NCBI GenBank assembly: GCA_012441205.1 | Contig: GCA_012441205.1_4705.1 | Strand: one strand, 5' to 3' | DNA: 64,000 nt | Source: a phage | Shown here: piece by piece, positions 5,258-59,200 of the stretch | Layout: the number at the start of each line of letters is the position of its first letter | Position numbering within the stretch: position 1 is the first letter of the stretch | The notes under the pieces: model-generated | Seen by the model: the letters and a program-made list of their open reading frames with translations, nothing else | Told to the model about the DNA's origin: nothing | Databases searched by the model: none | Translations under genes and position numbers: made by a program

Positions 5258-5313
5258 AAGGTAACGTTATACGTCGCCTTCATGACTGTCATCATGAAGG
5301 TAATATAGTCCTG
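5258..5313 (-). promoter_or_regulatory. tandem promoter-like motifs (AAGGTAACGTTATACGTC and AAGGTAATATAGTC on + strand; minus strand reads ...TATATTACCTT)
   Basis: Same motif family recurs at 18418, 30976-31038 and 59181, each just upstream of a minus-strand gene block. Confidence 0.45.
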
Positions 5314-10370: not shown

Positions 10371-11213
10371 ATGCATAAATTTACCATTCCTGAAGACCCG
10401 ATTACACTGCAGACCCTTTGGGATTCACATCGTGCTTTATCAATGGAAGGCTTTGCGCAAGACTTCGCTTCACTTACCGCAGTAACGAATCTTCGCAGTA
10501 TGTTTACCAACGGTAAGAAGTTTGTTACCGATTGGCTTAAGAAACGTGATGTGACGGTTTATCCTAAAGTTTTCGATGACCTCGATACGATTTTTAGCAA
10601 CAACGCTTACAGCGATCTCATTGGGTATCGTGCTTTTATTCCGAATGGTTTAAATGCGCCGATGTCAGATTATGTTGTTGCTTTAACTCAGAGCCTGGAT
10701 AGCGTGATTGGCACCATCCTACCTGATTTGGATAAGCTGACCGTAACGTGCGCTAAAGCCGTCAACGACGTTAACTTCCGTCGTAGTAGTGGTATGGCTC
10801 AAACGCTACCTAAAAACGATCCAGAGAACGTTCTAGAGACGTTACGTGCGATGTTCAAACAAGGGACGGTAACACAGACCACTGTAGGCCGTGCATATAA
10901 GAACGAAGATGATATTCGTCAGATCGGAAAAGATCTGGATGCTTCCCGTATCCGTGCGCTTGACGTTAATCCTAAAGACGTGAAGAAGGCAATCGAACGT
11001 TTCATGGAGGTAGCTGACCGTTTAACCGAAATCCTGGTTCAAGACTACAATGAAGGTGCGGTGAGCAACGCGATGATTCGCGATATTAGTGACGCTATCT
11101 ACCAAACAGCCAAGCAGGCTGAACTGTATGCGTTTCTCGTGAACGCTTTGGCTGAGGCGATCATCGCATATAACGACACTTGGGACGCCGTTAAAAAGAA
11201 CGCGAAAAAATAA
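10371..11213 (+). CDS. hypothetical protein
   Basis: 280-aa ORF, ATG preceded by GAGGA at 5 nt. Confidence 0.6.
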   Translation: MHKFTIPEDPITLQTLWDSHRALSMEGFAQDFASLTAVTNLRSMFTNGKKFVTDWLKKRDVTVYPKVFDDLDTIFSNNAYSDLIGYRAFIPNGLNAPMSDYVVALTQSLDSVIGTILPDLDKLTVTCAKAVNDVNFRRSSGMAQTLPKNDPENVLETLRAMFKQGTVTQTTVGRAYKNEDDIRQIGKDLDASRIRALDVNPKDVKKAIERFMEVADRLTEILVQDYNEGAVSNAMIRDISDAIYQTAKQAELYAFLVNALAEAIIAYNDTWDAVKKNAKK

Positions 11214-11221
11214 CATAATAA

Positions 11222-11257
11222 CCCACCCTACTACCCCGTTAAGGGCGGTAGGGTGGG
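11222..11257. terminator. nested hairpin element between convergent genes
   Basis: CCCACCCTAC-taCCCCgttaaGGGcg-GTAGGGTGGG between 10371..11213 (+) and 11265..11696 (-). Confidence 0.55.
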
Positions 11258-11264
11258 ATAAGGT

Positions 11265-11696
11265 TTATTTGCCGTATAGTTGTACCACTCGTTGTGTCGT
11301 AGGAACGCAGACTCTTACCAGAAGCTTTTTAATCTCCTGACGAATCGTTGCTTTATCATCATAATAAAGCCATGGCGGAACGCGTTGCATTATGCACTGC
11401 ACGGCTTCATCGTAGTTCGTCGTCTCATTAAGTAACGTCTCACTATCCAGATCTTTCCATGCAGTAATACCAAGTCGCGCAGCAAACATCAACGCTGAAA
11501 CCGACTCAGCTATCTCCAATCGCTCATTCATATCCGCAAGACCTTTTAGCATGATGTAATTATCGTCATGCTGGTGCAGGGTACCATACAAACTTCCGAA
11601 GAGAAGTATGCGTTTAGCTTTTGCGGTTAAGAGGAACGATAGGAGAGCGTGTTTCAACGGTTGTTTCTCACGTTCTACCTGTTCGACCATCACCAT
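11265..11696 (-). CDS. hypothetical protein
   Basis: 143-aa ORF. Confidence 0.5.
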   Translation of the reverse strand: MVMVEQVEREKQPLKHALLSFLLTAKAKRILLFGSLYGTLHQHDDNYIMLKGLADMNERLEIAESVSALMFAARLGITAWKDLDSETLLNETTNYDEAVQCIMQRVPPWLYYDDKATIRQEIKKLLVRVCVPTTQRVVQLYGK

Positions 11697-11699
11697 TGA

Positions 11700-13226
11700 T
11701 TACTCCAACACATAACGTGGGTTACTGTATATGTTAGCCCATATACCAACGTCGTCTCCCGACTCAATAATCACAGCGAAACGAAACGCAACATCAGACT
11801 CGCGATATGTTACCGCGTACGCTTTCGTTTCCGGTGATGCTAAATAGCTCAAGTTCAGACGTTGAGGCAGGTCTAACCCCAAGGACATGGTACAAGACGT
11901 AACGCCCTGCTTATCGGGGGTCAGTCTGTAATTCACGTCCACCTTCAAGCTTTTCGTAACCTGCGTAATCGCACTATGCACTTTGGTAACCGTTTTGCCT
12001 TTCTTATCCTTTTCTGTTTCGAAAAGAACGTCGGTAATTTCGGTTACGACTAGACGCGGTGTGGATTCGCGGTTAGCGTCAAGCCATTCATCCAGTAACG
12101 TCTTTAAGAAGTTCAAGGAATCAATCGCACGCCAAGCAAGGTTAGGCGGGTTGCACGCTTCCATTAAAATGGCTGTGTTGGATCCACCTAGCGGAAGATG
12201 CACGCTCTTACCGAGGCCTGTCGGACGCATCGTAAGATCGCACTCACCCTCAAGAATATCGCGATGATATTGACGATGATGAAGGTTATCCGTGTATGCG
12301 ATATACACTGACTCCGTTGTCCCATGCTCTAATACCCGAGATGCATGCGTACGCATAATCTCAACAGCATCATCCGGCTTGCTTAGATAGATAACACTGT
12401 ACGCACTATCGCTAATCCTTTTCCCTAACTCAAGACGTCCCTTGTTGTCTTTATCGGTGTTACCACCGAAATAGATGTAGCGGCCATCTTTCGCACGCTC
12501 TTGCTGCTGGTTGGTGGTAAAGTAGCAGCGTGAGAACGTAAAGAACGGGCTTATTTCCGGTTCGGGGCTCCAATACCCCTTAGCCGGAAGTTCGCGGCGT
12601 ATTTGGGTTCTTACAGCCCAGTCCTGGTTTTGTGATAGATATGTTCCACGCGTTGCCAACATATCCGCACGTTCGTTACCAACATTGCCCTCATGTCCAG
12701 GAACATAGCGCAGCGAAATATCGATAGCGTCGCGCTTCGCATCCCTTATCGCGCTATCGAGTTTCCGCCACCGTTCCGCATTCATTAACGGTTTATTGTC
12801 GGATTTAACCCAGTTGTTCTCTCGCCAATTAGCAAGATGGTTGGTGGCACCTACAACAACATATTGGCTGTCCGACAACAGCTGGATCCGTTTTGCCCCC
12901 TTTGCTTTTCCAAGTTCAATCGCACGTATTGCGGCATCCAACTCAGCCTGATTGTTCGTTACATTGAAACCCAAAGCCTCTAACTCATCCACGTATTCCT
13001 TGGGTTCGACCAGCACAGCGTCTTTAGGAAAGTCGAGTTTAGGGTCAACATAACCGTATTGCGTTGGTTTGGGCTTCCCACTTTTTGAAGGTTCCAAGGT
13101 GCCTTTTATTTCTTTCACCATATCGTAGGTGTAGCCATGCACGCCATAGCCACCATACCCACTCGATGTTGGACGGGATCCTCCATCACAGTAGAAAACG
13201 GCACCAAGCTCAGTATTTCCTGCCAT
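11700..13226 (-). CDS. RNase HI-domain protein fused to ~300-aa C-terminal domain of unknown function
   Basis: N-terminal FYCDGGS, GYGGYG, TNNQAELDAAIRAIE, LLSDSQYVV, GHEGNVGNERADMLA match the RNase HI D-E-D-H-D catalytic pattern; start placed at ATG 13226 (GAGG 6 nt upstream). Confidence 0.7.
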   Translation of the reverse strand: MAGNTELGAVFYCDGGSRPTSSGYGGYGVHGYTYDMVKEIKGTLEPSKSGKPKPTQYGYVDPKLDFPKDAVLVEPKEYVDELEALGFNVTNNQAELDAAIRAIELGKAKGAKRIQLLSDSQYVVVGATNHLANWRENNWVKSDNKPLMNAERWRKLDSAIRDAKRDAIDISLRYVPGHEGNVGNERADMLATRGTYLSQNQDWAVRTQIRRELPAKGYWSPEPEISPFFTFSRCYFTTNQQQERAKDGRYIYFGGNTDKDNKGRLELGKRISDSAYSVIYLSKPDDAVEIMRTHASRVLEHGTTESVYIAYTDNLHHRQYHRDILEGECDLTMRPTGLGKSVHLPLGGSNTAILMEACNPPNLAWRAIDSLNFLKTLLDEWLDANRESTPRLVVTEITDVLFETEKDKKGKTVTKVHSAITQVTKSLKVDVNYRLTPDKQGVTSCTMSLGLDLPQRLNLSYLASPETKAYAVTYRESDVAFRFAVIIESGDDVGIWANIYSNPRYVLE

Positions 13227-13276
13227 TGTAAACCTCATTAATCATTGTCCGTATGATAGCCCAAAGTTGTACGGTA

Positions 13277-13828
13277 TTACCGATTACCGTCAGTTGACGT
13301 TGGTTGATTGCGATCGATTTTCATTGACCGTAATTTTCCACCATTAGTTACACACTGATTGCGCTGTTCGACGGAGGCCAGACTGTTACAGACATAATAA
13401 GTATCGATAAAACGCTCAACGCGTTCTTGAAACTTCCTCCCGGCAACTTGCTCTTTTTCAAAAGTTCGTAATGCACGATCGACCTCACCTTGGAGAATCC
13501 GGTTCTGTTCAACCATACTGTCTATTAAACGGCCTCGCACTTCGTTCGATGTGTAGAGTTGATGAATCAGTTCTCGGTTGGTGTCTCGCGCATAACGCAA
13601 TGTTGCATTTTCCTGACGTAAACTACTCACGTCAGCCATCAAGGTAATGATTTTTTCGCCAGCGAATAACGTCACGATACCCAATACGATGAAAAAGCCC
13701 GTAATCAAGAATATCGAGGACTGTCGAGCTCCATCTCGACGATAGCGTGTGGGCGGTCGCTTACTTCGCCGAAACAACTCGCGAAGAAAAGGGAAAAGCC
13801 AGGGCAACGCCTTGAGTGTAGTAAACAT
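13277..13828 (-). CDS. membrane protein with one TM helix followed by coiled-coil (spanin-like or other membrane factor)
   Basis: Internal start MFTTLKALPW (AAGGA upstream); hydrophobic IFLITGFFIVLGIVTLFA then heptad-like charged region. Confidence 0.45.
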   Translation of the reverse strand: MFTTLKALPWLFPFLRELFRRSKRPPTRYRRDGARQSSIFLITGFFIVLGIVTLFAGEKIITLMADVSSLRQENATLRYARDTNRELIHQLYTSNEVRGRLIDSMVEQNRILQGEVDRALRTFEKEQVAGRKFQERVERFIDTYYVCNSLASVEQRNQCVTNGGKLRSMKIDRNQPTSTDGNR

Positions 13829-13882
13829 GCGTGTGTCCTTGATAGTATGAAATTTCCAATACAACTTAACCGAGGACGTCGA

Positions 13883-15223
13883 ATGATTAGTATTTTTGGT
13901 TTTTATACGTACAAAGGGTACGCTAATAACCACCCAAAAACCACGGCGAAATTCGGTGAGTTCAGTCAGCACAGTGCTACGTTCAGTCGCGAAATCGGCA
14001 TCTATACCAACACGGCGTACGCACGTACGACCTTATTAGTGTTGAATGCCGAAAACGAAGCTGGTGAAGCACAAACGCTGAATGACGACACCGCAGGCCG
14101 CATTCTTCAGGTTGGTCAATGGTTGCTGGAAAAAGCCTCATCAGGCGAAATCCAGGATGACCGAGACCAGGTTATCGGCTACCTAAAAGACGACTTCACA
14201 ACGTATCTGGATTCTATCGACATCCCAACACCCACCACCGATGGTACCGTCTATCTACCGGCGTGGATCAGTTTCAAGATAACCGCCACCGGCGATGTCG
14301 TCAAGATTTGGTTGTCTGATAGCGTATTCCAAAGTCAATATCCAAAATACGAATATGAAGTCGTTCCCCCTGTTCCTAAGGATCAGTTAGATACCTTCTT
14401 CGAAGATCTGGCAACATTGAAGAAACTGGTTGACAGTCGAAGCAGCGAGAAACTGACCGAAGAAATCAACGAGGTGCGCGACCAATTCCCAGACACACAA
14501 TTGTGGACGAAAACATATAAAGCGTACGATTACACCGACGATTCGAAATATATTAATACCGATTGGACGGTGATTATCTACGGTGCAGCAGGTAACAACA
14601 TTGATAATATCAAGGAGTTCCTGCAAAACTGGATTCTTAGCAATAGCACGCACGGACGTCCAGACTGGGAAATCGTTCTGCCGGATCTTTTTATTCCGAC
14701 GGAACACATCTTCATTCCAATCTGGAACCGCCACAGTGCGCCAGAAATGACCAATCAGGCACGTATCTATAGTCCTATATTCGATGATTCGTTGATGGAT
14801 ACCTACCTGAAAAACTTTGCTGATGGTTACGGCGAAACCGCCGAAGTCCGTAAATCGCTTCAAGCGGTGCCGACGTTGTGGCGCTCGATCGGTTTCTTAA
14901 GCGTTGGTAACTCACGTAACCGAGACGGTAAACTTAAGTTCTACGATCGTTGGCCGCAATACGCGCTCATCAGCACAACCAGCATCGATATTAACCGTAT
15001 CGATGATGCGACACGTGAATTCATCACGTTCACTTACGAAATGCTGAAACTGGCAGAATCGCTGACCGAAGACGACCCGGTACCGTTGGGTTATAGTCGT
15101 GTTACGCGTGGTAGCAATAGCTTCTTAGCGAAAAGCCACAACGATGTTCAGTATCTCTTCTTAACAAAAGAAGCGTTCCTGAAGAAAATGCCGGATGAAG
15201 CCGACACGCCTGTTGGAGGTTGA
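13883..15223 (+). CDS. hypothetical protein
   Basis: Track ORF 13847..15223; ATG at 13883 has GAGGA 6 nt upstream. Antisense ORF 14387..14863 judged spurious. Confidence 0.6.
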   Translation: MISIFGFYTYKGYANNHPKTTAKFGEFSQHSATFSREIGIYTNTAYARTTLLVLNAENEAGEAQTLNDDTAGRILQVGQWLLEKASSGEIQDDRDQVIGYLKDDFTTYLDSIDIPTPTTDGTVYLPAWISFKITATGDVVKIWLSDSVFQSQYPKYEYEVVPPVPKDQLDTFFEDLATLKKLVDSRSSEKLTEEINEVRDQFPDTQLWTKTYKAYDYTDDSKYINTDWTVIIYGAAGNNIDNIKEFLQNWILSNSTHGRPDWEIVLPDLFIPTEHIFIPIWNRHSAPEMTNQARIYSPIFDDSLMDTYLKNFADGYGETAEVRKSLQAVPTLWRSIGFLSVGNSRNRDGKLKFYDRWPQYALISTTSIDINRIDDATREFITFTYEMLKLAESLTEDDPVPLGYSRVTRGSNSFLAKSHNDVQYLFLTKEAFLKKMPDEADTPVGG

Positions 15224-18417: not shown

Positions 18418-18438
18418 ACTTAAGTAATATAGCCGTGA
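18418..18438 (-). promoter_or_regulatory. promoter-like motif (TTAAGTAATATAGCCGTGAAA on + strand; TATATTAC core on minus strand)
   Basis: About 30 bp upstream of minus-strand gene 17736..18392; same family as 5298, 31018, 59181. Confidence 0.45.
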
Positions 18439-18542
18439 AAAATGTTGGATTAAGTTAAATACCGCAACCGCAGCTAATTTTATAGGCTTTTAGCCTAAAC
18501 CAATCATCTTCGGAATCATCATCTTTGAAACAGGAATCTATC

Positions 18543-25984: not shown

Positions 25985-27073
25985 ATGAGCGACCTGGCAA
26001 CAGACAATCGCACAAAAGGGAGTCAGCTAGCTCCAGACAACAACGTAAGCGTTTTCCGTATCTATGCCTTGGGTACTGTTGCTGCCGACTTTTCCAATAA
26101 AAGTCTGGAGGAAGATCCTAACCAGACGCTGGAGGTCTTTCTTGATGAGATGATGTCAGGCGCTGATGGGAAAGTTGAAGCGGTGGGAAGCGTTAAAGAA
26201 GTCAGTGCAACAGACGCTCAAGGGAACAGCTATACGGCGAAAGCGGCAACAACAACCAGCATACAGTGTTACTGGTTACCCTTCGGCAGTAACCGGATGA
26301 CAGCACCTAACTTGAGGAAAGGTCAGCGTGTGGTGGTTTGGCGTACCGCGGATGAAGAACAACTCTATTGGCAACCCAAAGGAGGGGATAGCGAGCTGAT
26401 GACCATGGAATCGGTTATCCTCACCGTCAGCGCACGTCCTAGCGCCAAGAAGGACCGTAAATCGATTTCAACGGAAGACTGCTATTACCTAATGGTTGAT
26501 ACCTTCCTCAAGAAAGCGGTTATCGGCACCAGCGCACAGCTTGGTGAAGTTACCCAAGTCTACATGGAACTTAATCTGGACGAGGGTTACCTACAGGTTG
26601 CGGACAGCGTTCATCAAAATCTGTTGTTACTCCATTTTGTCGAGCATATGCTGCGTTATCAAAACCAGGACGACAGCATCATCGACGTGACAAAAAAGAA
26701 CATCACGTTCCAGTGCGAGGATACGCTCAAAGCAATCGCTAAGAACGATATCCGAATGAAAGCAAAAAATATTTATACGGAATGTGAGAACTTTGAACGT
26801 ACCAGCAAAACAGAAAGCGTTACGAGTCAGAATGTTTCTTTGAAGTGTGATCGTTACACCGCGCAAGTATCAGGACAGACCACGTTTAAATGTCCTAATA
26901 CGGTATTCACTGGAGCTGTAAGCTTCACAGGTGAAGACGGAAACACGATGACGTTGAATGGGAACTTCGTACACATCGCAGGCTCTTGGCGTTCACCAAC
27001 CGGAACAAACGTATACACCCACGATCACGGTGGTGTAGATCGTGGTAGCGGTCGTACAGACCCGTTCCAATAA
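25985..27073 (+). CDS. hypothetical protein, possible baseplate central-spike (gpV-like) with His-rich apex
   Basis: AGGAG 8 nt upstream of ATG; C-terminal NVYTHDHGGVDRGSGRTDP recalls the HxH iron-binding tip of P2 gpV / phi92 gp138-type spikes (from memory). Confidence 0.3.
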   Translation: MSDLATDNRTKGSQLAPDNNVSVFRIYALGTVAADFSNKSLEEDPNQTLEVFLDEMMSGADGKVEAVGSVKEVSATDAQGNSYTAKAATTTSIQCYWLPFGSNRMTAPNLRKGQRVVVWRTADEEQLYWQPKGGDSELMTMESVILTVSARPSAKKDRKSISTEDCYYLMVDTFLKKAVIGTSAQLGEVTQVYMELNLDEGYLQVADSVHQNLLLLHFVEHMLRYQNQDDSIIDVTKKNITFQCEDTLKAIAKNDIRMKAKNIYTECENFERTSKTESVTSQNVSLKCDRYTAQVSGQTTFKCPNTVFTGAVSFTGEDGNTMTLNGNFVHIAGSWRSPTGTNVYTHDHGGVDRGSGRTDPFQ

Positions 27074-27104
27074 ACAGAAGAAAAAAAAAAGAAATGCAAT
27101 ACAA

Positions 27105-27139
27105 CCTCCTTCCCTAGCCGTCAAGGCCGGGGAAGGAGG
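27105..27139. terminator. nested hairpin element between convergent genes
   Basis: CCTCCTTCC-ctaGCCgtcaaGGCcgg-GGAAGGAGG, preceded by an A10 run. Confidence 0.55.
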
Positions 27140-27154
27140 ATTATAGTTTATTTA

Positions 27155-27544
27155 TTAACGCGTTGCATTCTGGATGATTTCTTTTCCGATCTTAACCAAA
27201 GCGGGTATCTGTACAGCGGTTGCGCCTCGATGACGAAACGCGGTCGTTAACGCGGTATCGATACTCACCGCACGTCCGTGAAGACGATCGAAATAGACTT
27301 GAGTGATTGCGGTAGCGTAATCCTTTCGCTGTTTCTTGGTTTGGCTCAACAGCGCCGCACTATGACTAACGATGAAGTAAGCGATTAAGAAGAACGCCGC
27401 TGACCGAGAACCAGGTAGAAAACCTTGTCGCTTAGGGAGCATCTCACAATCGCGAACACTATTATCGTTCGCCAGCTCTTCCATATCAACACAGCATAAT
27501 TTTGCATAGGTGTGGAGATAGTGGGTAAAAGTTGAATTTAACAT
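27155..27544 (-). CDS. hypothetical small protein (putative early gene)
   Basis: 129 aa; last gene of the minus-strand array downstream of the 31 kb promoter-like motifs. Confidence 0.5.
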   Translation of the reverse strand: MLNSTFTHYLHTYAKLCCVDMEELANDNSVRDCEMLPKRQGFLPGSRSAAFFLIAYFIVSHSAALLSQTKKQRKDYATAITQVYFDRLHGRAVSIDTALTTAFRHRGATAVQIPALVKIGKEIIQNATR

Positions 27545-27649
27545 TTTCTTTCCTCGATTGCCATGAGTTCAATGTATAGCTTAAACGTCACAGAACGACG
27601 TATAACGGTTTGTTTTAATTTCTAAGGGGTTTCCTTATCTAAGATTGAT

Positions 27650-28012
27650 TTAAAGCGTTCTGAAGAGTTCTGTAGCGTTCTCGTCACGTAGGCAGGCTTC
27701 GTTCAACAATTCAGCTAACAGCTTCGACCGAACTTCAACAAATGTCCTGAGGCGATGCTCCCATTCTAAACGGATAGTGTACGTATTATCCAGGTTTTTG
27801 TAATCAACGACAGATGTAGAACAACGGGCCTCGCGTTTGTTCACAGCACTCCAAACATCACGGATAACCGTCACGCCTTTCTTGGTACACGTAAACGTTA
27901 AAATAAAGCGATTATTCGCAGCTTCTTCACGGACGCCAACAAATTCACTTCGCAACGATGAGACTTTGATCAGTCGGTCAATAGCTAACGATAAACCGAT
28001 ACGTTGTTGCAT
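27650..28012 (-). CDS. hypothetical small protein (putative early gene)
   Basis: 120 aa; stop 2 nt from the next start. Confidence 0.5.
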   Translation of the reverse strand: MQQRIGLSLAIDRLIKVSSLRSEFVGVREEAANNRFILTFTCTKKGVTVIRDVWSAVNKREARCSTSVVDYKNLDNTYTIRLEWEHRLRTFVEVRSKLLAELLNEACLRDENATELFRTL

Positions 28013-28013
28013 A

Positions 28014-28439
28014 TCAAATTCCTTCTTTCAGAATCTCATTAAGACCGTCAGTAATCCAGTCGAACTTCGTCTTAATCATGGCTGGGTTCAATCCATATAC
28101 TTCCCACACAAGCTGGGGTTTATGTGTTCCATCGTCCAAACAAAGCACATCGATTGAGAGTACCATACCACCCGTCAATTTCATGTTCTCGCAACTACGA
28201 AGATATGCGGATTCTAGCAATACTTTCCCTAACGCAGTGCAAGCAAATGTTAACCGGGAAGAGTACAGGTACGATGACGTTTTACAGTAGGTTGCTGATA
28301 TCGGTTGAATATGTTTGCGGAGTTTGGCGTCTTCACGTAAAAGCAATAACGTGTGATGTAACCGCGTATGCTCGGTAACCGATGAGCTATACTCACCGAT
28401 ACACTCTTCGGCGACTGATTTAGGCCATTTAATTTTCAT
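28014..28439 (-). CDS. hypothetical small protein, paralog-like with 28455..28898
   Basis: N-terminus MKIKWPKSVA resembles MEIKFCKSIA of the neighbour. Confidence 0.5.
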   Translation of the reverse strand: MKIKWPKSVAEECIGEYSSSVTEHTRLHHTLLLLREDAKLRKHIQPISATYCKTSSYLYSSRLTFACTALGKVLLESAYLRSCENMKLTGGMVLSIDVLCLDDGTHKPQLVWEVYGLNPAMIKTKFDWITDGLNEILKEGI

Positions 28440-28454
28440 GTTCGATTCCTCGTA

Positions 28455-28898
28455 TTAACACTGTGTTCCATTCGATAAGCGGGTGGTATCAAAACGATCC
28501 AGTTGGTGTACAATGCTATCAGCAACACGATGCAAATAGTGTATTTTGTCCATTCGTGAAATCGCAGAAATCGTCCAGCAAGCCTCTGACGTCCAATAGG
28601 TGCCGTCTTCACTAAGGCTAACGTTATAAACTAACTTCGTCATCACATTTCTCGCCTTATGCTCAGCAGACCAGAATATGTTTTCTAACACATCCTTCCC
28701 CGTTTGTGAAAACACGAACCCAAGCTTCACGTCGAAGTCGGATGCTTCAAGATTAACGCAGTGAAGATGATTCTCTAACGGCGCAAAAGAGGCTAAACGT
28801 TCCAGCGCATGTTGCAGTGTGGGATGATCGAGCTTTTCGAGATCATCCGCAGGTTGTTCAGGTACAATCGCGATCGATTTACAGAATTTAATTTCCAT
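28455..28898 (-). CDS. hypothetical small protein, paralog-like with 28014..28439
   Basis: 147 aa; similar N-terminus to neighbour. Confidence 0.5.
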   Translation of the reverse strand: MEIKFCKSIAIVPEQPADDLEKLDHPTLQHALERLASFAPLENHLHCVNLEASDFDVKLGFVFSQTGKDVLENIFWSAEHKARNVMTKLVYNVSLSEDGTYWTSEACWTISAISRMDKIHYLHRVADSIVHQLDRFDTTRLSNGTQC

Positions 28899-29010
28899 GG
28901 TAGGTTCCTCTTGATAGTGGTTGATGATAGTAACGGGGACGGCGATGTCCCCTTGGTTTCTTATTGCCCCGCCTGTACCCGATGGGGTACAGGCGGGTGA
29001 TGTTGATGCG

Positions 29011-29418
29011 TTATAGCGGCATCAGACGTTCTTTAAGTTGGGTTAACTTATTTGCAACGATGTTCTCAACGTCGATCATCTTGTTCATGTTGTCGAGGGT
29101 ATCCTGCCAGATGAAAATATCCACGGAACCGGTTCCGACTAACGCGTTCTCAGGACGATGGTCACGGGTCACGTAGCGTGGTCTCTGCGGGCAGGTTTGT
29201 AACTCGATCCAAAGCGCATCTAACGGACCACGGTCCGTGACACCTAAGGCGAAGAATTCACCTCGTACGACCAGAACATCATCAGCCGTCCTGACACGGG
29301 TTGATCCTTCGTACACCAATTCCATCTTTGCTCGACAGGCTGGGTTCTCGTTCCACGCCTGGACGGCATCGGCAAGGGCTATTGACGTTGCGGTGGTGTT
29401 CGTTTGATCATGTTGCAT
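29011..29418 (-). CDS. hypothetical small protein (putative early gene)
   Basis: 135-aa ORF. Confidence 0.5.
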   Translation of the reverse strand: MQHDQTNTTATSIALADAVQAWNENPACRAKMELVYEGSTRVRTADDVLVVRGEFFALGVTDRGPLDALWIELQTCPQRPRYVTRDHRPENALVGTGSVDIFIWQDTLDNMNKMIDVENIVANKLTQLKERLMPL

Positions 29419-29495
29419 TCTAAGCTCCTGTAACGCTCTCTAAGCGTCGTTTTAAGTTAAGGTATAGTTTCCCTTCTTTGGATTCGTTTATTGCG

Positions 29496-29771
29496 TTATA
29501 CGGCTTTTCTGTGCGCGTAGAACGCCTTCGTTCCGTTGTTGATTGCTTCAACCACATCCCGGGTTAACACAACGGCGTTATCGCTTCGAGACGACGGTGC
29601 GTAATACCCTTCACCGTTCTCGGTAATCAGGCGATAACGGACTAAGCCTATGCTCGGTTCAACACGTAGCACCTTCTCAAGTTTGTATTTGATGATCTTC
29701 GTCAGGCTAACCGTGTCTGACGCGTAGATCGCTTTATAAACTTTGTTCTTTGCTGTGGGTTTCATCAACAT
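29496..29771 (-). CDS. hypothetical small protein (putative early gene)
   Basis: 91-aa ORF. Confidence 0.45.
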   Translation of the reverse strand: MLMKPTAKNKVYKAIYASDTVSLTKIIKYKLEKVLRVEPSIGLVRYRLITENGEGYYAPSSRSDNAVVLTRDVVEAINNGTKAFYAHRKAV

Positions 29772-29811
29772 GATTTCTGTTGTATTTTCCTTTTCGCTTG
29801 TTGGTGTTGGA

Positions 29812-30111
29812 TTAATGTTTAGGTTCCGTTTTGTGTTGTGCGAGTAATGTGTTGATCTGCTCCCGTTGTTCTTTTAAGCATGCAGGAAGCTGGTCTTCCC
29901 GTACCGTTCCGATTTCCAACGTGATGTACCAACGTTGTTCGGAAGCCTGCCATTGAAAACTGCTCTGTAACCTCAGGATGCTAGGATCACGTACCTTGCT
30001 TGCACTGTAACGGTTGAACCAATCCAGGTATGCTGCTTTCCCTTCCTCGTCAGCGATGTAACGCTGCACGCTGTTCTTCCCTTTGTTCTCGTATCCCGTT
30101 GCACGTATCAT
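29812..30111 (-). CDS. hypothetical small protein (putative early gene)
   Basis: Track ORF 29812..30165; start MIRATGY at 30111 overlaps the upstream stop as ATGA. Confidence 0.45.
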   Translation of the reverse strand: MIRATGYENKGKNSVQRYIADEEGKAAYLDWFNRYSASKVRDPSILRLQSSFQWQASEQRWYITLEIGTVREDQLPACLKEQREQINTLLAQHKTEPKH

Positions 30112-30890
30112 GCGAACGTTTCTCCTGTAATGTGTTGCGGATGGCGTAGCATGGTAGCATCCCATTGTACGATCTGGCTTCGGCTTACCCGCATCATGAT
30201 GGATTCGTCATCAAGCCCCTGTTGCGCAACCGGCAACCAACGTTCCCCAAGCACCTTCGCTTCAACACGTTTCTTGCGTGGGTTGTAACGCACCTCGCTA
30301 ACCCAAGCGAATCCAAGCGGATGGACTACCCGTGGATAAAACATGCGAAGCAATTGATGCATCCGATCCGTTGCCTCCAATTTGCCATCCACCATGTAAG
30401 GTTTCACCATGGTAAGCTTTTTGGTGTAATACGTTCCAACGGTATGGTTACGCCAACTTGGCAAGGCATGATCCCCTTCTCTCAGTTTGCTATCCGAGTT
30501 CATTGACCAGACCTGCTGTTTACCGGCCAGCATCGCGTACTGCCGATCAACGCAACGAACCCGATCGGCGAACAATGGATCCAGGACATCATCCACCGCG
30601 CCCTTATTGCGATAACCGTGATGTACCACCAACCTGCTTGCGCTCATCGATGCGGGATGCTGGCTCTTATGCGCATACAGCCCTCCGTCACCGCGAGCGT
30701 CGTAAAGATAACCGCATGCGCCACGCCATATCACCTTGCCTACGGTTCTCTCGTCTTCAAGCAGCATCGTCGGCCCATCAAGCAAATTGGTGAACCACTG
30801 CACCTTCACGCATTCCGCTTGGACATGCTCAGGTAATGCCTGATACTCTTTTTGGGTGTATAAGGTATCAAAAATGATTTCTTCGTTCAT
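30108..30890 (-). CDS. hypothetical protein, first gene after the AT-rich control region
   Basis: 260-aa ORF; no motif recognised. Confidence 0.55.
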   Translation of the reverse strand: MNEEIIFDTLYTQKEYQALPEHVQAECVKVQWFTNLLDGPTMLLEDERTVGKVIWRGACGYLYDARGDGGLYAHKSQHPASMSASRLVVHHGYRNKGAVDDVLDPLFADRVRCVDRQYAMLAGKQQVWSMNSDSKLREGDHALPSWRNHTVGTYYTKKLTMVKPYMVDGKLEATDRMHQLLRMFYPRVVHPLGFAWVSEVRYNPRKKRVEAKVLGERWLPVAQQGLDDESIMMRVSRSQIVQWDATMLRHPQHITGETFA

Positions 30891-31717
30891 TTAAAAAGTT
30901 CCTCTGTTTCACGTTAATTAAACAACGTATTGATTTCTATTTGACAGAATACGAACATCGTACGTATCTATCACTTAGGTAACGCTTACGCGTCGCGTTC
31001 ATGATACCATGCATCATGAAGGTAATATAGCCGTGAAAGGATTTGTGTTAACGCAAGGGTTTTGTTTGTTTTTTAAGAAGGGATGGATTTAGAAGAGGTG
31101 TTTCAAGGAAGGTAAACGAGAATAGGTATTTTGATTTAAGTAAGATGTTATCTGTATCCGTTAGAAGTGTATTGTCTAAGTTATCTTGTTTATCTTAGGT
31201 TTAATCGTTTTTATCTTGGTATGTTTAAGTTGTTTTTATTTAACTGTTAAAATGCTTATCTTCAAAACAATGGATAACATGTGTTTACTACGCTCGTTGA
31301 GTTATAACTCAACGGTAACACATGTCATCTGTGCATTACACTACGTTACATGCTAGTTAAATCGGATAACTCAAAAAAACATTTGTGATACTCTTCTTCA
31401 CGTTGTTCATCAGAGTATCTCGTCTATACTCATTGCATTCGTATACGACATAACCGTTACACGCTAACGCTACGCTTATAGCTTGATAACTCTAAGGATA
31501 AAAACATAAACTCGCTTCGCTCGTTTAGTTTTTCTTTTTCTTAGAGTTATCCTGTTGCTCGTCTCTAAAGGACTTCGCTCCTCCCCCGTCCCCCGAAGGG
31601 GCCGAGGTCGTGGAAATTTTACTTTCCAAATACATTTACAACATCTGTAAACTTTTACTCCAGGTACTTAATCTTATCATTAGAAATTATAAAAGAGAAA
31701 ATAAACACAAACATAAA
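30891..31717. other. AT-rich ORF-free region with direct and inverted repeats (candidate origin / promoter cluster / ncRNA locus)
   Basis: About 830 bp with no ORF of 60 aa or more; five TTATCT(T/G) repeats (31150-31260), GGATAAC/GAGTTATC repeats, palindrome CGTTGAGTTATAACTCAACG; no tRNA-like T-loop seen. Confidence 0.5.
30976..31038 (-). promoter_or_regulatory. tandem promoter-like motifs (TTAGGTAACGCTTACGCGTC and GAAGGTAATATAGCCGTGAAA on + strand)
   Basis: Minus strand reads CACGGCTATATTACCTTC; 90-130 bp upstream of minus gene 30108..30890. Confidence 0.45.
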
Positions 31718-31760: not shown

Positions 31761-32654
31761 TTATTCGGAAACGTTATAACCGAATACTGCTTTACCGTAG
31801 GTGTGAGTACCGTCAGCTAACGACAGCACCAACACATGGTTGTATGTAGCGTTAACGCCTTTATCGGTAGACCCGGTGGTAGCACCGTTATAGACAAAGG
31901 TAGCTGTTTGCAGATTGGTTTTCAGTTCATTGATGATATCATCACTTACACCAGTCTGTTCTTTAATCAGGGTGGTCAGGTTACCCGCTAAGCCTGCATC
32001 GATCTTGGTATCGTTACTGGTAATAGCTTGTAAACCTGCGGTGTAAGTACTGAAGTCTAACGGATAGGTTAACAGACGTGCTGAGGTCTTGGTACCATCG
32101 CCTTCATCAACGTAGGTTAAGTTACCCAGATTGGTAACCTTGATGATGTTAGCCAGATCCAGCGTGGTGTTATAAACTTTAACTTGAACAGAGCCATACC
32201 ACGCCAACGAATCTTCTTTGGCTTCCAGGGTGATCGTCTGGATACCATGCTGGTCGAAGGTAACCGGCGTAGCTAACGTTTCGGCTTTGATGTCTTTCGC
32301 TTTATCCAGGAACTTCTCACCGGAAGGCGTGATCATACCGTAGCGTTGAGCTACAAGGTCAACCACATCACCGATGGTGGTGTTCGCCTCAACGTTAACA
32401 CGTACAGCGATCTTCTGGAACCACTTAGCCAGATCCAGACGATGGTAGGTGACATCTCGGTTATTGAAGTAAGGGGTACCTTCACCAGGACTAAGTGTTA
32501 AAGTTGCTTCTGGAGCAGAAGGATTCTTTTCTTTAAGGACGTATTTAAGGTCGGTATATTTAAAGCTGGCACCAGTGTCAGCGTTAAGCTGGTTGATCTC
32601 ATCAACGATAAGTTGCCAAGGTGTTTTTAAAGTAAGCGATACTTGAGCAGTCAT
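31761..32654 (-). CDS. YYDR-domain paralog family member (structural protein candidate)
   Basis: Internal start MTAQVSL with GAGGAAG SD; shares YHRLDL ... LAWYGSV ... GYNV motifs with 43714, 45536, 46398 and 32794 genes. Confidence 0.55.
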   Translation of the reverse strand: MTAQVSLTLKTPWQLIVDEINQLNADTGASFKYTDLKYVLKEKNPSAPEATLTLSPGEGTPYFNNRDVTYHRLDLAKWFQKIAVRVNVEANTTIGDVVDLVAQRYGMITPSGEKFLDKAKDIKAETLATPVTFDQHGIQTITLEAKEDSLAWYGSVQVKVYNTTLDLANIIKVTNLGNLTYVDEGDGTKTSARLLTYPLDFSTYTAGLQAITSNDTKIDAGLAGNLTTLIKEQTGVSDDIINELKTNLQTATFVYNGATTGSTDKGVNATYNHVLVLSLADGTHTYGKAVFGYNVSE

Positions 32655-32793
32655 TTTCTTCCTCGATAGTTGGTACATCACTCTCAAAAGATGTAAGTGT
32701 TTACAGAAATTAATATATTTTATATTAAATGTGAATATTATGGAGAACGACTCCGAATCTCCTTTTCGACCATCAAAATCAGAGGACACGAAC

Positions 32794-33339
32794 ATGTCTA
32801 CTTTAGACTTTAACAAAGCAGCGAAATCCCTTCTGCTTGATCTTATTAACACCAAAGCGACCCGCACATTGGCTGAAGAAGAACTGCAGTTCGGTACTCC
32901 GCAGGAATCTTCCGAACATGAAAAGAACACCGTTATTCAGCTGGACGCGGCGGCTGAAGCAGCTAACCTGCAGGGTACTCAGCAGTTCTACTACGATCGT
33001 CTGGCTCTGTCTGACGTTTTCGCTGATGTAACTGGTGATGTTACTTTCGAACTGCCGCACGGTACTGACAGCATTCAGGCTTCTGAGCTGGTAAGCAAGC
33101 TGGTCACCAAATTCGGTCTGGCTTCCCTGAATGGTGAAATCAGAGAAGAAACCTTCCAGCTGTCTGCCGGTACTGTTGATGAGGTAATTCTGAATGCGAT
33201 CGAGGGTGGCCTGGTATACACTGGTACTCTGCGAGTTGCCCTGACCTACGCACTGGCACCAAAAGACGAACTGGCAACCGTTCTGGCGAATAACGTAGCT
33301 GAAGGTTTCGAGAAACCGACCGTTAGCGTTGTTGGCTAA
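32794..33339 (+). CDS. abundant small virion protein candidate, minimal member of YYDR-domain family
   Basis: Strongly biased E. coli-like codon usage; FYYDRLAL ... FGLASL ... LVYTGTLRVAL matches the family domain; GAGGA before ATG at 32794. Confidence 0.6.
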   Translation: MSTLDFNKAAKSLLLDLINTKATRTLAEEELQFGTPQESSEHEKNTVIQLDAAAEAANLQGTQQFYYDRLALSDVFADVTGDVTFELPHGTDSIQASELVSKLVTKFGLASLNGEIREETFQLSAGTVDEVILNAIEGGLVYTGTLRVALTYALAPKDELATVLANNVAEGFEKPTVSVVG

Positions 33340-59180: not shown

Positions 59181-59200
59181 TAGGTAATGTAAGCGTCAAA
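59181..59200 (-). promoter_or_regulatory. promoter-like motif (TAGGTAATGTAAGCGTCAAA on + strand)
   Basis: Same family as 5258, 18418 and 30976; about 150 bp upstream of minus gene 57590..59032 and downstream of the hairpin that follows the 740-aa gene. Confidence 0.4.

Follow-up and report, generated by a model that had tools for sequence, protein, structure and literature searches.

A discrete early operon of eight lineage-restricted small genes in a Goslar-like chimallivirus

Gene content and coding potential of the array

The stretch of phage DNA analyzed here (GenBank assembly GCA_012441205.1, contig GCA_012441205.1_4705.1; 64,000 nucleotides, hereafter the window) carries on its minus strand, between positions 27,155 and 30,890, an array of eight small genes that we designate A to H in the order of transcription. 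A megablast search with the region 27000-31200 returned Escherichia phage vB_EcoM_Goslar as the sole match (96.4% identity, 91% query coverage). Goslar, a nucleus-forming jumbo phage of 237 kb in the Chimalliviridae, infects E. coli, and genes A to H correspond one-to-one to Goslar gp021 to gp014 (HOV27_gp014-021), all eight of which are labelled 'hypothetical protein' in that genome. Gene order, flanks, promoter, terminator and locus are all as in Goslar, and seven of the eight proteins are 97-100% identical between the two phages. The differences are in protein A (61% amino acid identity), where the divergence is limited to residues 29-140 and Goslar holds another allele, and in a 43-nt hairpin module of the leader that Goslar lacks. 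Comparisons were made among the window, Goslar and six further Goslar-like loci (L003, L005, L006, L007, L008 and L009). The main texts of the Goslar papers searched do not name gp014-gp021, and no published phenotype was found for them; what is already known is thus their annotation as hypothetical genes and their expression values in a published supplement, with no discussion in the papers searched. The genes are listed below (aa, amino acids; pI, isoelectric point; dN/dS, ratio of nonsynonymous to synonymous substitution rates).

30108-30890, minus strand: gene A, 260 aa, orthologue of gp021
29812-30111, minus strand: gene B, 99 aa, orthologue of gp020; 83-97% identical to its orthologues, dN/dS 0.05-0.28, without family or PDB match
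29496-29771, minus strand: gene C, 91 aa, pI 9.8, orthologue of gp019; in 8/8 loci, dN/dS 0-0.28, without family or PDB match
29011-29418, minus strand: gene D, 135 aa, acidic, orthologue of gp018; without family or PDB match
28455-28898, minus strand: gene E, 147 aa, orthologue of gp017
28014-28439, minus strand: gene F, 141 aa, orthologue of gp016; in 8/8 loci, 46-97% identity in six loci and 100% to Goslar
27650-28012, minus strand: gene G, 120 aa, orthologue of gp015; N-terminally shorter than E and F
27155-27544, minus strand: gene H, 129 aa, pI 9.5, orthologue of gp014; the most conserved, 85-99% identity in six loci and 100% to Goslar

All eight open reading frames (ORFs) of 91-260 aa proposed in the initial annotation of this DNA were found, with one correction. 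ORF B is present, but the start at 30165 (117 aa) is unlikely and would entail a 58-nt overlap with A; the start at 30111 (99 aa) gives an ATGA overlap with the stop codon of A, follows a GGAG ribosome-binding site, and agrees with the Goslar annotation and with six relatives (orthologues of 89-99 aa). Ribosome-binding sites of the AGGA/GAGG type lie ahead of every one of the eight ORFs. Pairwise Nei-Gojobori dN/dS against the seven related genomes ranges from 0.0 to about 0.5-0.6 for every gene, the sole higher value (0.90, D against Goslar) having only four differences behind it. All eight Goslar orthologues are transcribed in published RNA sequencing (RNA-seq) data, and virion mass spectrometry has yielded peptides for three. 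Because each ORF has a ribosome-binding site and dN/dS values are in the range 0.0-0.5, and given the Goslar transcripts and peptides, the eight ORFs are genuine coding sequences under purifying selection.

Promoter, leader and terminator

The array is bounded by regulatory signals on both sides, and motifs of the same kind as its promoter recur elsewhere in the window.

31022-31038, minus strand: promoter motif TTTCACGGCTATATTAC, of the chimallivirus early (virion RNA polymerase) type, 131 nt upstream of the A start codon
30891-31021, minus strand: structured 5' leader, 131 nt, RNA fold z = -3.9
28935-28997, minus strand: two strong GC-rich hairpins (28968-28997 and 28935-28952) in the gap between D and E, folding free energy (dG) of the gap -41.8 kcal/mol
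27100-27145, both strands: hairpin of a bidirectional intrinsic terminator, lying where H and the tail-spike gene converge; a terminator is annotated in Goslar
5300-5307, minus strand: further early-promoter motif, heading the orthologues of the gp200-201 block
18424-18440, minus strand: further early-promoter motif, heading the orthologues of the gp004-001 block
59184-59200, minus strand: further early-promoter motif, heading the orthologues of the gp040-037 block

The motif TTTCACGGCTATATTAC meets the published promoter consensus for related jumbo phages, in which the predicted promoters are TATATTAC for phiKZ and TTTRARR_BTATATTACDWHDGTG for 201phi2-1, with close variants in OBP, N1M2 and EL (PMC7058600, Table 2). 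Its TATATTAC core lies at 31022-31029, the T-rich TTTCA-type element about 9 nt upstream belongs to the consensus, and TTTCACGRCTAYATTACCT is kept in all eight aligned Goslar-like loci. Four sites in the window carry the extended motif or a near variant (31038, 18440, 59200 and 5307), all of them on the minus strand, intergenic and pointing into a gene. Exact copies of TATATTAC number six, all on the minus strand; three (4474, 17472 and 38732) lie within ORFs and are without the upstream TTTCA element. A scan for host sigma-70 promoters stayed at chance level (10 found, 9.1 expected).

Tandem promoter-like motifs had been described at 30976-31038. One canonical motif stands (31022-31038), while the second is only a degenerate repeat of its 3' part, CGTTACCT at 30978-30985, 44 nt downstream of the promoter and separated from it by a hairpin. 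This repeat belongs to a 43-nt segment (30974-31016) that the window shares with L005, L007 and L009; Goslar, L003, L006 and L008 lack it. The first hairpin of the leader, TTCATGAT...ATCATGAA, follows directly on the promoter and precedes GCGACGCGTAAGCGTTACC. The 43-nt module itself contains a hairpin (TTCATGA..TCATGAA, GCGACG..TAA.CGTTACC), and its end, a second TTACCT, mimics the 3' end of the promoter, and the arrangement of promoter, hairpin and CGTTACC recurs at 5262-5307 (module at 5262-5299). The module may have arisen as a duplicated part of the promoter or as a small mobile insertion, or it may serve as a regulatory element of the leader. The combination of a small hairpin with CGTTAC, seen in the leader and in the gap between C and D, was considered as a special motif and set aside, as it is not clearly enriched and is present inside genes too. 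No Rfam family matched between 26900 and 31900.

At the other end of the array the predicted hairpin was confirmed at about 27104-27139 (dG -29.7 kcal/mol, z = -5.1), where the Goslar annotation also places a terminator.

Expression of the Goslar orthologues at the early-infection vesicle stage

Knockdown of chimallin (ChmA) in Goslar arrests infection at the early-infection vesicle, with a transcriptome of the early type (Armbruster et al., bioRxiv 10.1101/2023.09.20.558163); this vesicle is reported to carry the injected virion RNA polymerase (bioRxiv 10.1101/2023.09.20.558163). The timing data used here are those of the Goslar orthologues, not of the window's phage, and are given as the log2 fold change of knockdown over control, from the per-gene values in Supplementary Table 2 of that study. 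Genes gp014-gp021 lie at +0.8 to +1.4, whereas gp005-gp013 lie at -2.8 to -7.6 (gp013 at -5) and gp022-gp036 at -3.5 to -6.8 (bioRxiv 10.1101/2023.09.20.558163). The limits of the spared block are exactly the promoter and the terminator found in the window. The pattern of the cassette is thus opposite to that of gp013, gp022, gp023 and gp041, and late, nucleus-dependent transcription was not seen for it. Since the Goslar orthologues are transcribed at the arrested vesicle stage, their expression does not need the phage nucleus.

The same correspondence holds at the other motif sites. All four motif-headed blocks (gp021-014, gp004-001, gp040-037 and gp200-201) are spared in the knockdown, while neighbouring genes are down 8-100-fold, the neighbours gp005, gp041, gp199 and gp202 collapsing. 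With 4/4 sites matching spared blocks, the motif therefore predicts vesicle-stage expression. Read density along the cassette is near flat, with gp021 at 1.2 reads/nt, gp014 at 0.8 and a local rise at gp018, which fits a single polycistronic transcript. Across the gap between D and E it passes from 1.64 reads/nt (gp018) to 1.08 (gp017), and the two hairpins in this gap may act as an internal attenuator or as an mRNA-stabilizing 3' element. The proposal of an early cassette behind a promoter is supported by the consensus promoter together with the sparing of gp014-gp021 at the vesicle stage in Goslar, and the array is one discrete early operon, probably polycistronic, with a phiKZ-type promoter and a strong terminator.

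Cassette products in virion preparations

Both flanks of the cassette are virion genes, so that it forms an early island in a late host-recognition module.

25985-27073, plus strand: tail spike gene, homologue of Goslar gp013, convergent with H; gp013 is part of the cryo-electron microscopy model of the virion
31761-32930, minus strand: DUF7941 'fibre cloud' virion genes, homologues of Goslar gp022 and gp023, on the other flank of the cassette

This position between the tail spike and DUF7941 genes is one of two points in favour of the idea that some products, chiefly E/gp017 and D/gp018, are packaged and injected, the cassette then encoding in part virion-borne early effectors. The other is their detection in Goslar virions by liquid chromatography with tandem mass spectrometry, at about 19 copies per virion for gp017 (4 peptides, 35% coverage), about 4 for gp018 (2 peptides) and about 0.6 for gp016; gp014, 015, 019, 020 and 021 were not detected (bioRxiv 10.64898/2026.04.21.720040, Table S4). 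The same preparation, however, contained the non-virion proteins chimallin (about 126 copies), PhuZ (about 171) and the non-virion RNA polymerase (bioRxiv 10.64898/2026.04.21.720040), so cytoplasmic carry-over was substantial, and chimallin and PhuZ were 6-9 times more abundant than gp017. None of the eight proteins is in the 28-protein cryo-electron microscopy model or among the abundant unmodelled proteins (bioRxiv 10.64898/2026.04.21.720040). The gp016-018 signal is at contaminant level and is read as cytoplasmic carry-over. Packaging also sits poorly with a transcription pattern opposite to that of the structural genes, with the five products of eight that went undetected, and with the absence of E from three related phages; we regard it as the least probable of the explanations considered here. 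Mass spectrometric evidence for virion components, which the initial annotation had named as grounds for abandoning an early cassette, is in part at hand in the gp016-018 peptides and does not overturn it, none of these proteins being in the 28-protein model.

Distribution and predicted properties of the proteins

The early statement that no recognizable motif is present was upheld: all eight proteins are without a significant match in Pfam, PHROGs, PADLOC and NCBIfam, and without a profile match in the PDB. DUF2509, RseA_C, OspD and 4-OT came up as candidate families and were dismissed as sub-threshold noise (E value of 0.04 or worse). A concatenated tblastn search of the eight proteins against 50,697 phage records found Goslar only. 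For A, a search of 5.8 billion proteins gave 22 homologue clusters, all on Goslar-like contigs, those on long contigs deriving from assemblies of about 200-250 kb with E. coli, Shigella and Salmonella as named sources; when 1.84 billion representatives were searched exhaustively with an HMMER profile, only orthologues and A's own paralogs were recovered. Homologues of E, F, G and H are likewise confined to Goslar-like contigs, H having only 5 homologue clusters (all at least 78% identical), and in IMG/VR only 3 contigs were found with G, all of them distinct from the window. Orthologues in other genera were found neither by tblastn nor by the A profile search, which places these genes outside the Chimalliviridae core genome. 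The cassette proteins are a lineage-restricted accessory set outside the conserved chimallivirus genes.

As predicted from sequence, the proteins are soluble, neither strongly acidic nor obviously nucleic-acid-like, and without transmembrane segments or signal peptides, save for a hydrophobic helix in H. This 19-mer, AAFFLIAYFIVSHSAALLS (aa 49-67, window 27344-27400; Kyte-Doolittle 1.85), is largely invariant, with residues 49-59 identical in all seven relatives, and is followed by a basic KKQRK stretch. H may therefore be a small membrane-associated protein, a prediction of relevance to the lipid early-infection vesicle. JADA, the early trigger of Avs5, was also weighed and dismissed, being a 721-aa protein encoded at a different locus.

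Gene gain, loss and mosaic ancestry among relatives

In the six relatives (L003, L005-L009) the cassette comprises 7-11 genes between conserved flanks and behind the conserved promoter. Genes A, B, C, F, G and H occur in all eight Goslar-like genomes, while E is absent from L005, L006 and L009 and D from L009. In the other relatives D takes a 156-aa form that is 34-40% identical to the 135-aa D of the window, and the window's D is a divergent short allele of this 156-aa protein. Between B and D, most relatives have an additional, unrelated gene of 145 aa, found in neither the window nor Goslar. The relatives further hold one to three extra full-length A paralogs of 277-300 aa (hhalign probability 98.6%), located at about 11070-14140 in the L003 and L005-L008 loci and at 11140-11973 in L009; neither the window nor Goslar has any. 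The window and Goslar have thus lost the extra A paralogs and the 145-aa gene, or never acquired them.

Individual genes differ in their nearest relative: it is L006 for H, L009 for F, L007 for E, and both Goslar and L005 for G. With each gene closest to a different genome, the cassette is a recombinational mosaic, and the content of this site changes between close relatives by gain, loss, duplication and allele swapping. A rival reading is that the cassette is a set of moron-like or competition genes, for instance genes for superinfection exclusion against related jumbo phages, that would be kept by recombination and have little effect on infection of a naive host. The variable content between conserved flanks, the gene-by-gene mosaic ancestry, the insertion polymorphism of the leader and the early expression, as exclusion functions would show, all agree with this idea. 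On the other hand, purifying selection acts on six families that no genome lacks, individual genes are not surrounded by repeats, target-site features or mobility genes, and none of the proteins resembles known exclusion proteins. We consider a moron or competition role very unlikely.

An exchangeable segment in protein A

In protein A the N-terminal cap and the C-terminal half, the latter with HP.G and WD motifs, are conserved, and the segment between them (aa 29-140) is variable. Relative to Goslar, the synonymous divergence (dS) is 1.76 over aa 29-140 and 0.28 over aa 141-260. Because dS is also extreme in the divergent segment, residues 29-140 were replaced by recombination, i.e., by allele replacement, and this very high dS rules out diversifying (in-place positive) selection as the cause of the divergence of A. 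Across A and its paralogs the invariant residues are W146, H190-P191-x-G193, W218 and W243-D244; they are mostly structural, with no catalytic signature among them.

The E, F and G paralogs and the fold of E

The tandem paralog pair with similar N-termini noted earlier proved to be a stronger relationship, E and F being homologous over their full length (hhalign probability 95.7%, E value 1e-8, 131 of 147 columns). Profile scores for G are weak (35% with E, 18% with F) and the register is consistent; the three proteins share a core of L(T/G)F.C(T/S)..GK and DGTY...L.WE. In rankings of the window's 429 six-frame ORFs, G stands next after F with the E model and next after E with the F model, and the G model places E at the top. 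G probably belongs with E and F as a third paralog.

Structure prediction with Foldseek searches, as had been suggested, gave a confident model for E without a significant solved homologue and an unusable one for A. The AlphaFold2 model of E (joint alignment of 26 sequences; predicted local distance difference test score, pLDDT, 84.9; predicted template modelling score 0.80) is a generic two-layer α/β sandwich, with four main β-strands against helices and a long C-terminal helix, whereas that of A (19 homologues, pLDDT 51) is too poor for a fold search. The nearest BFVD models to E (template modelling score, TM, 0.44-0.54) are uncharacterized proteins of 140-165 aa from other jumbo phages, namely PhiPA3 gp356 (annotated as similar to phiKZ gp290) and proteins of 201phi2-1, Erwinia EamM phages, Vibrio VP4B and RaK2. 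A profile-sequence comparison found no similarity of PhiPA3 gp356 to E, F or G, and a search for literature on phiKZ gp290 found none. Comparison of E with the RNA polymerase (RNAP) alpha/Rpb3/Rpb11/subunit L fold and with TYW3-like UPF0130 gave no Foldseek match at an E value of 0.001 or below (TM at most 0.41). Designed proteins score as high as these RNAP alpha/Rpb11-like and TYW3-like neighbours, which are without sequence signal, and by our reading the E model departs from the Rpb11 topology in having a helix between its two β-hairpins.

These structural neighbours bear on the main rival to a host-directed role, namely that the products serve the phage's own early programme in the vesicle-to-nucleus transition, mRNA handling or transcription, with E, F and G acting, for example, as small dimerizing RNAP adaptors. 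To our knowledge, phage multisubunit RNA polymerases have no recognized alpha subunit. B, G and H are retained throughout and are highly conserved, which speaks for a phage-intrinsic early role; such a role is also compatible with the weak RNAP-alpha-like fold signal of E. We hold this role to be rather unlikely, although no other alternative ranks above it.

Interpretation of the cassette and comparison with known systems

The explanation we prefer, and consider moderately probable, is that the array works in a Goslar-like chimallivirus as a lineage-specific accessory operon, transcribed early as one polycistronic unit, and that its products act on host-specific targets. Under such a scheme, the cassette mRNAs would leave the vesicle and be translated in the host cytoplasm within minutes, and the small soluble products would act there (H possibly at a membrane) on host-specific targets, either conditioning the cell or blunting cytoplasmic defences that can still reach a phage with shielded DNA. 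The A family would combine a constant C-terminal module with an exchangeable recognition segment, and E, F and G would derive from a single α/β binding domain by duplication and divergence. The initial annotation had spoken of a host-takeover or anti-defence cassette. Its early timing holds; the functional label is circumstantial, drawing on that timing together with lineage restriction, gene gain and loss, paralog expansion and mosaic recombination, and is without a match to defence-related families.

Several observations weigh against a host-directed accessory operon and should be kept in mind. No protein matched a known anti-defence, toxin, regulator or enzyme family in Pfam, PHROGs, PADLOC, NCBIfam or PDB profiles, no dedicated anti-defence library having been used. 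The six families present in 8/8 genomes, several of them 85-99% conserved, suit a lineage-core function equally with an arms race, and there is no direct signal of positive selection, dN/dS being at most about 0.6 wherever divergence is measurable. The timing is known from Goslar only, not from this phage, and 'early' is a broad class, 175 of the 249 Goslar genes being detectable 5 min post infection (bioRxiv 10.1101/2023.09.20.558163). The gp016-018 peptides in virion preparations also count on this side (bioRxiv 10.64898/2026.04.21.720040).

Two kinds of known systems offer comparisons for the accessory operon favoured here. Early operons of ORFans in phiKZ-like phages share with it the TATATTAC-type promoter, nucleus-independent early timing, tight arrays of small proteins and lineage restriction. 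Early host-directed proteins of phiKZ-like phages include Dip/gp37, which acts against the RNA degradosome, and PHIKZ014, which acts on the ribosome. The cassette differs from these operons in having no sequence homology to phiKZ, PhiPA3 or 201phi2-1 proteins, the weak fold resemblance of E being the only similarity. Such operons are a known kind of feature, to which the cassette adds an uncharacterized example with two undescribed protein families. Other phages have accessory or anti-defence hotspots, such as the hypervariable regions of T-even phages and the class I genes of T7, among them Ocr. The cassette resembles these hotspots in its early expression, in the conserved flanks around 7-11 variable genes, and in having undergone paralog expansion and allele swapping. 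Unlike them, the cassette has no known anti-defence family or PADLOC match, most of its families occur in all relatives, and its transcription would be carried out by a phage polymerase from inside the vesicle rather than by host RNAP.

A bolder and quite unlikely extension of the same idea is that the A and A-paralog family (one to four copies per genome, with the swapped segment of about 110 residues setting target specificity) and E/F/G together form a new class of vesicle-stage effectors that evade or disarm cytoplasmic protein- or RNA-sensing immunity in chimalliviruses infecting Enterobacteria. More radically still, E, F and G might be alpha-like assembly or adaptor subunits of phage RNA polymerases.

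Non-coding region upstream of the cassette

Two non-coding segments separate the cassette from the gp022 homologue. Between the terminator of that gene and the cassette promoter lies an element of about 310 nt (31370-31680, minus strand) that is near-identical in all eight Goslar-like phages, among which the nearby protein A is 42-84% identical. It contains no minus-strand ORF of at least 40 aa, has no Rfam match and matches only Goslar in the phage database. Its minus strand folds at -88.9 kcal/mol (z = -5.3; plus strand z = -4.0), with a GGCCCC-UUCG-GGGGAC hairpin and a 13-bp long-range stem (GGATAACTCTAAG/CTTAGAGTTATCC). Its invariance precludes a covariation test; the element is a candidate for a non-coding RNA, a replication origin or some other DNA site. 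Adjacent to it, at 31040-31360, lies a spacer rich in AT and in indels, in which AAGATAA(A/C)/GATAAC motifs recur; unlike the invariant element just upstream, this spacer varies in length and content in every relative.

Implications for Goslar-like chimalliviruses

So far the cassette is one more early ORFan operon, of moderate interest and unsurprising to a specialist. It is, at the same time, a cleanly bounded unit in the genetically tractable E. coli/Goslar system, which encodes eight undescribed proteins, includes two paralog families and varies naturally in the presence or absence of genes, and it is suited as a target for knockdown screens over host strains. The match between promoter and expression provides a simple sequence rule by which early blocks can be predicted in Goslar-like genomes. 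Since the DNA of nucleus-forming jumbo phages is shielded, it is the genes expressed from the vesicle in the first minutes that decide how the phage copes with the host cytoplasm.

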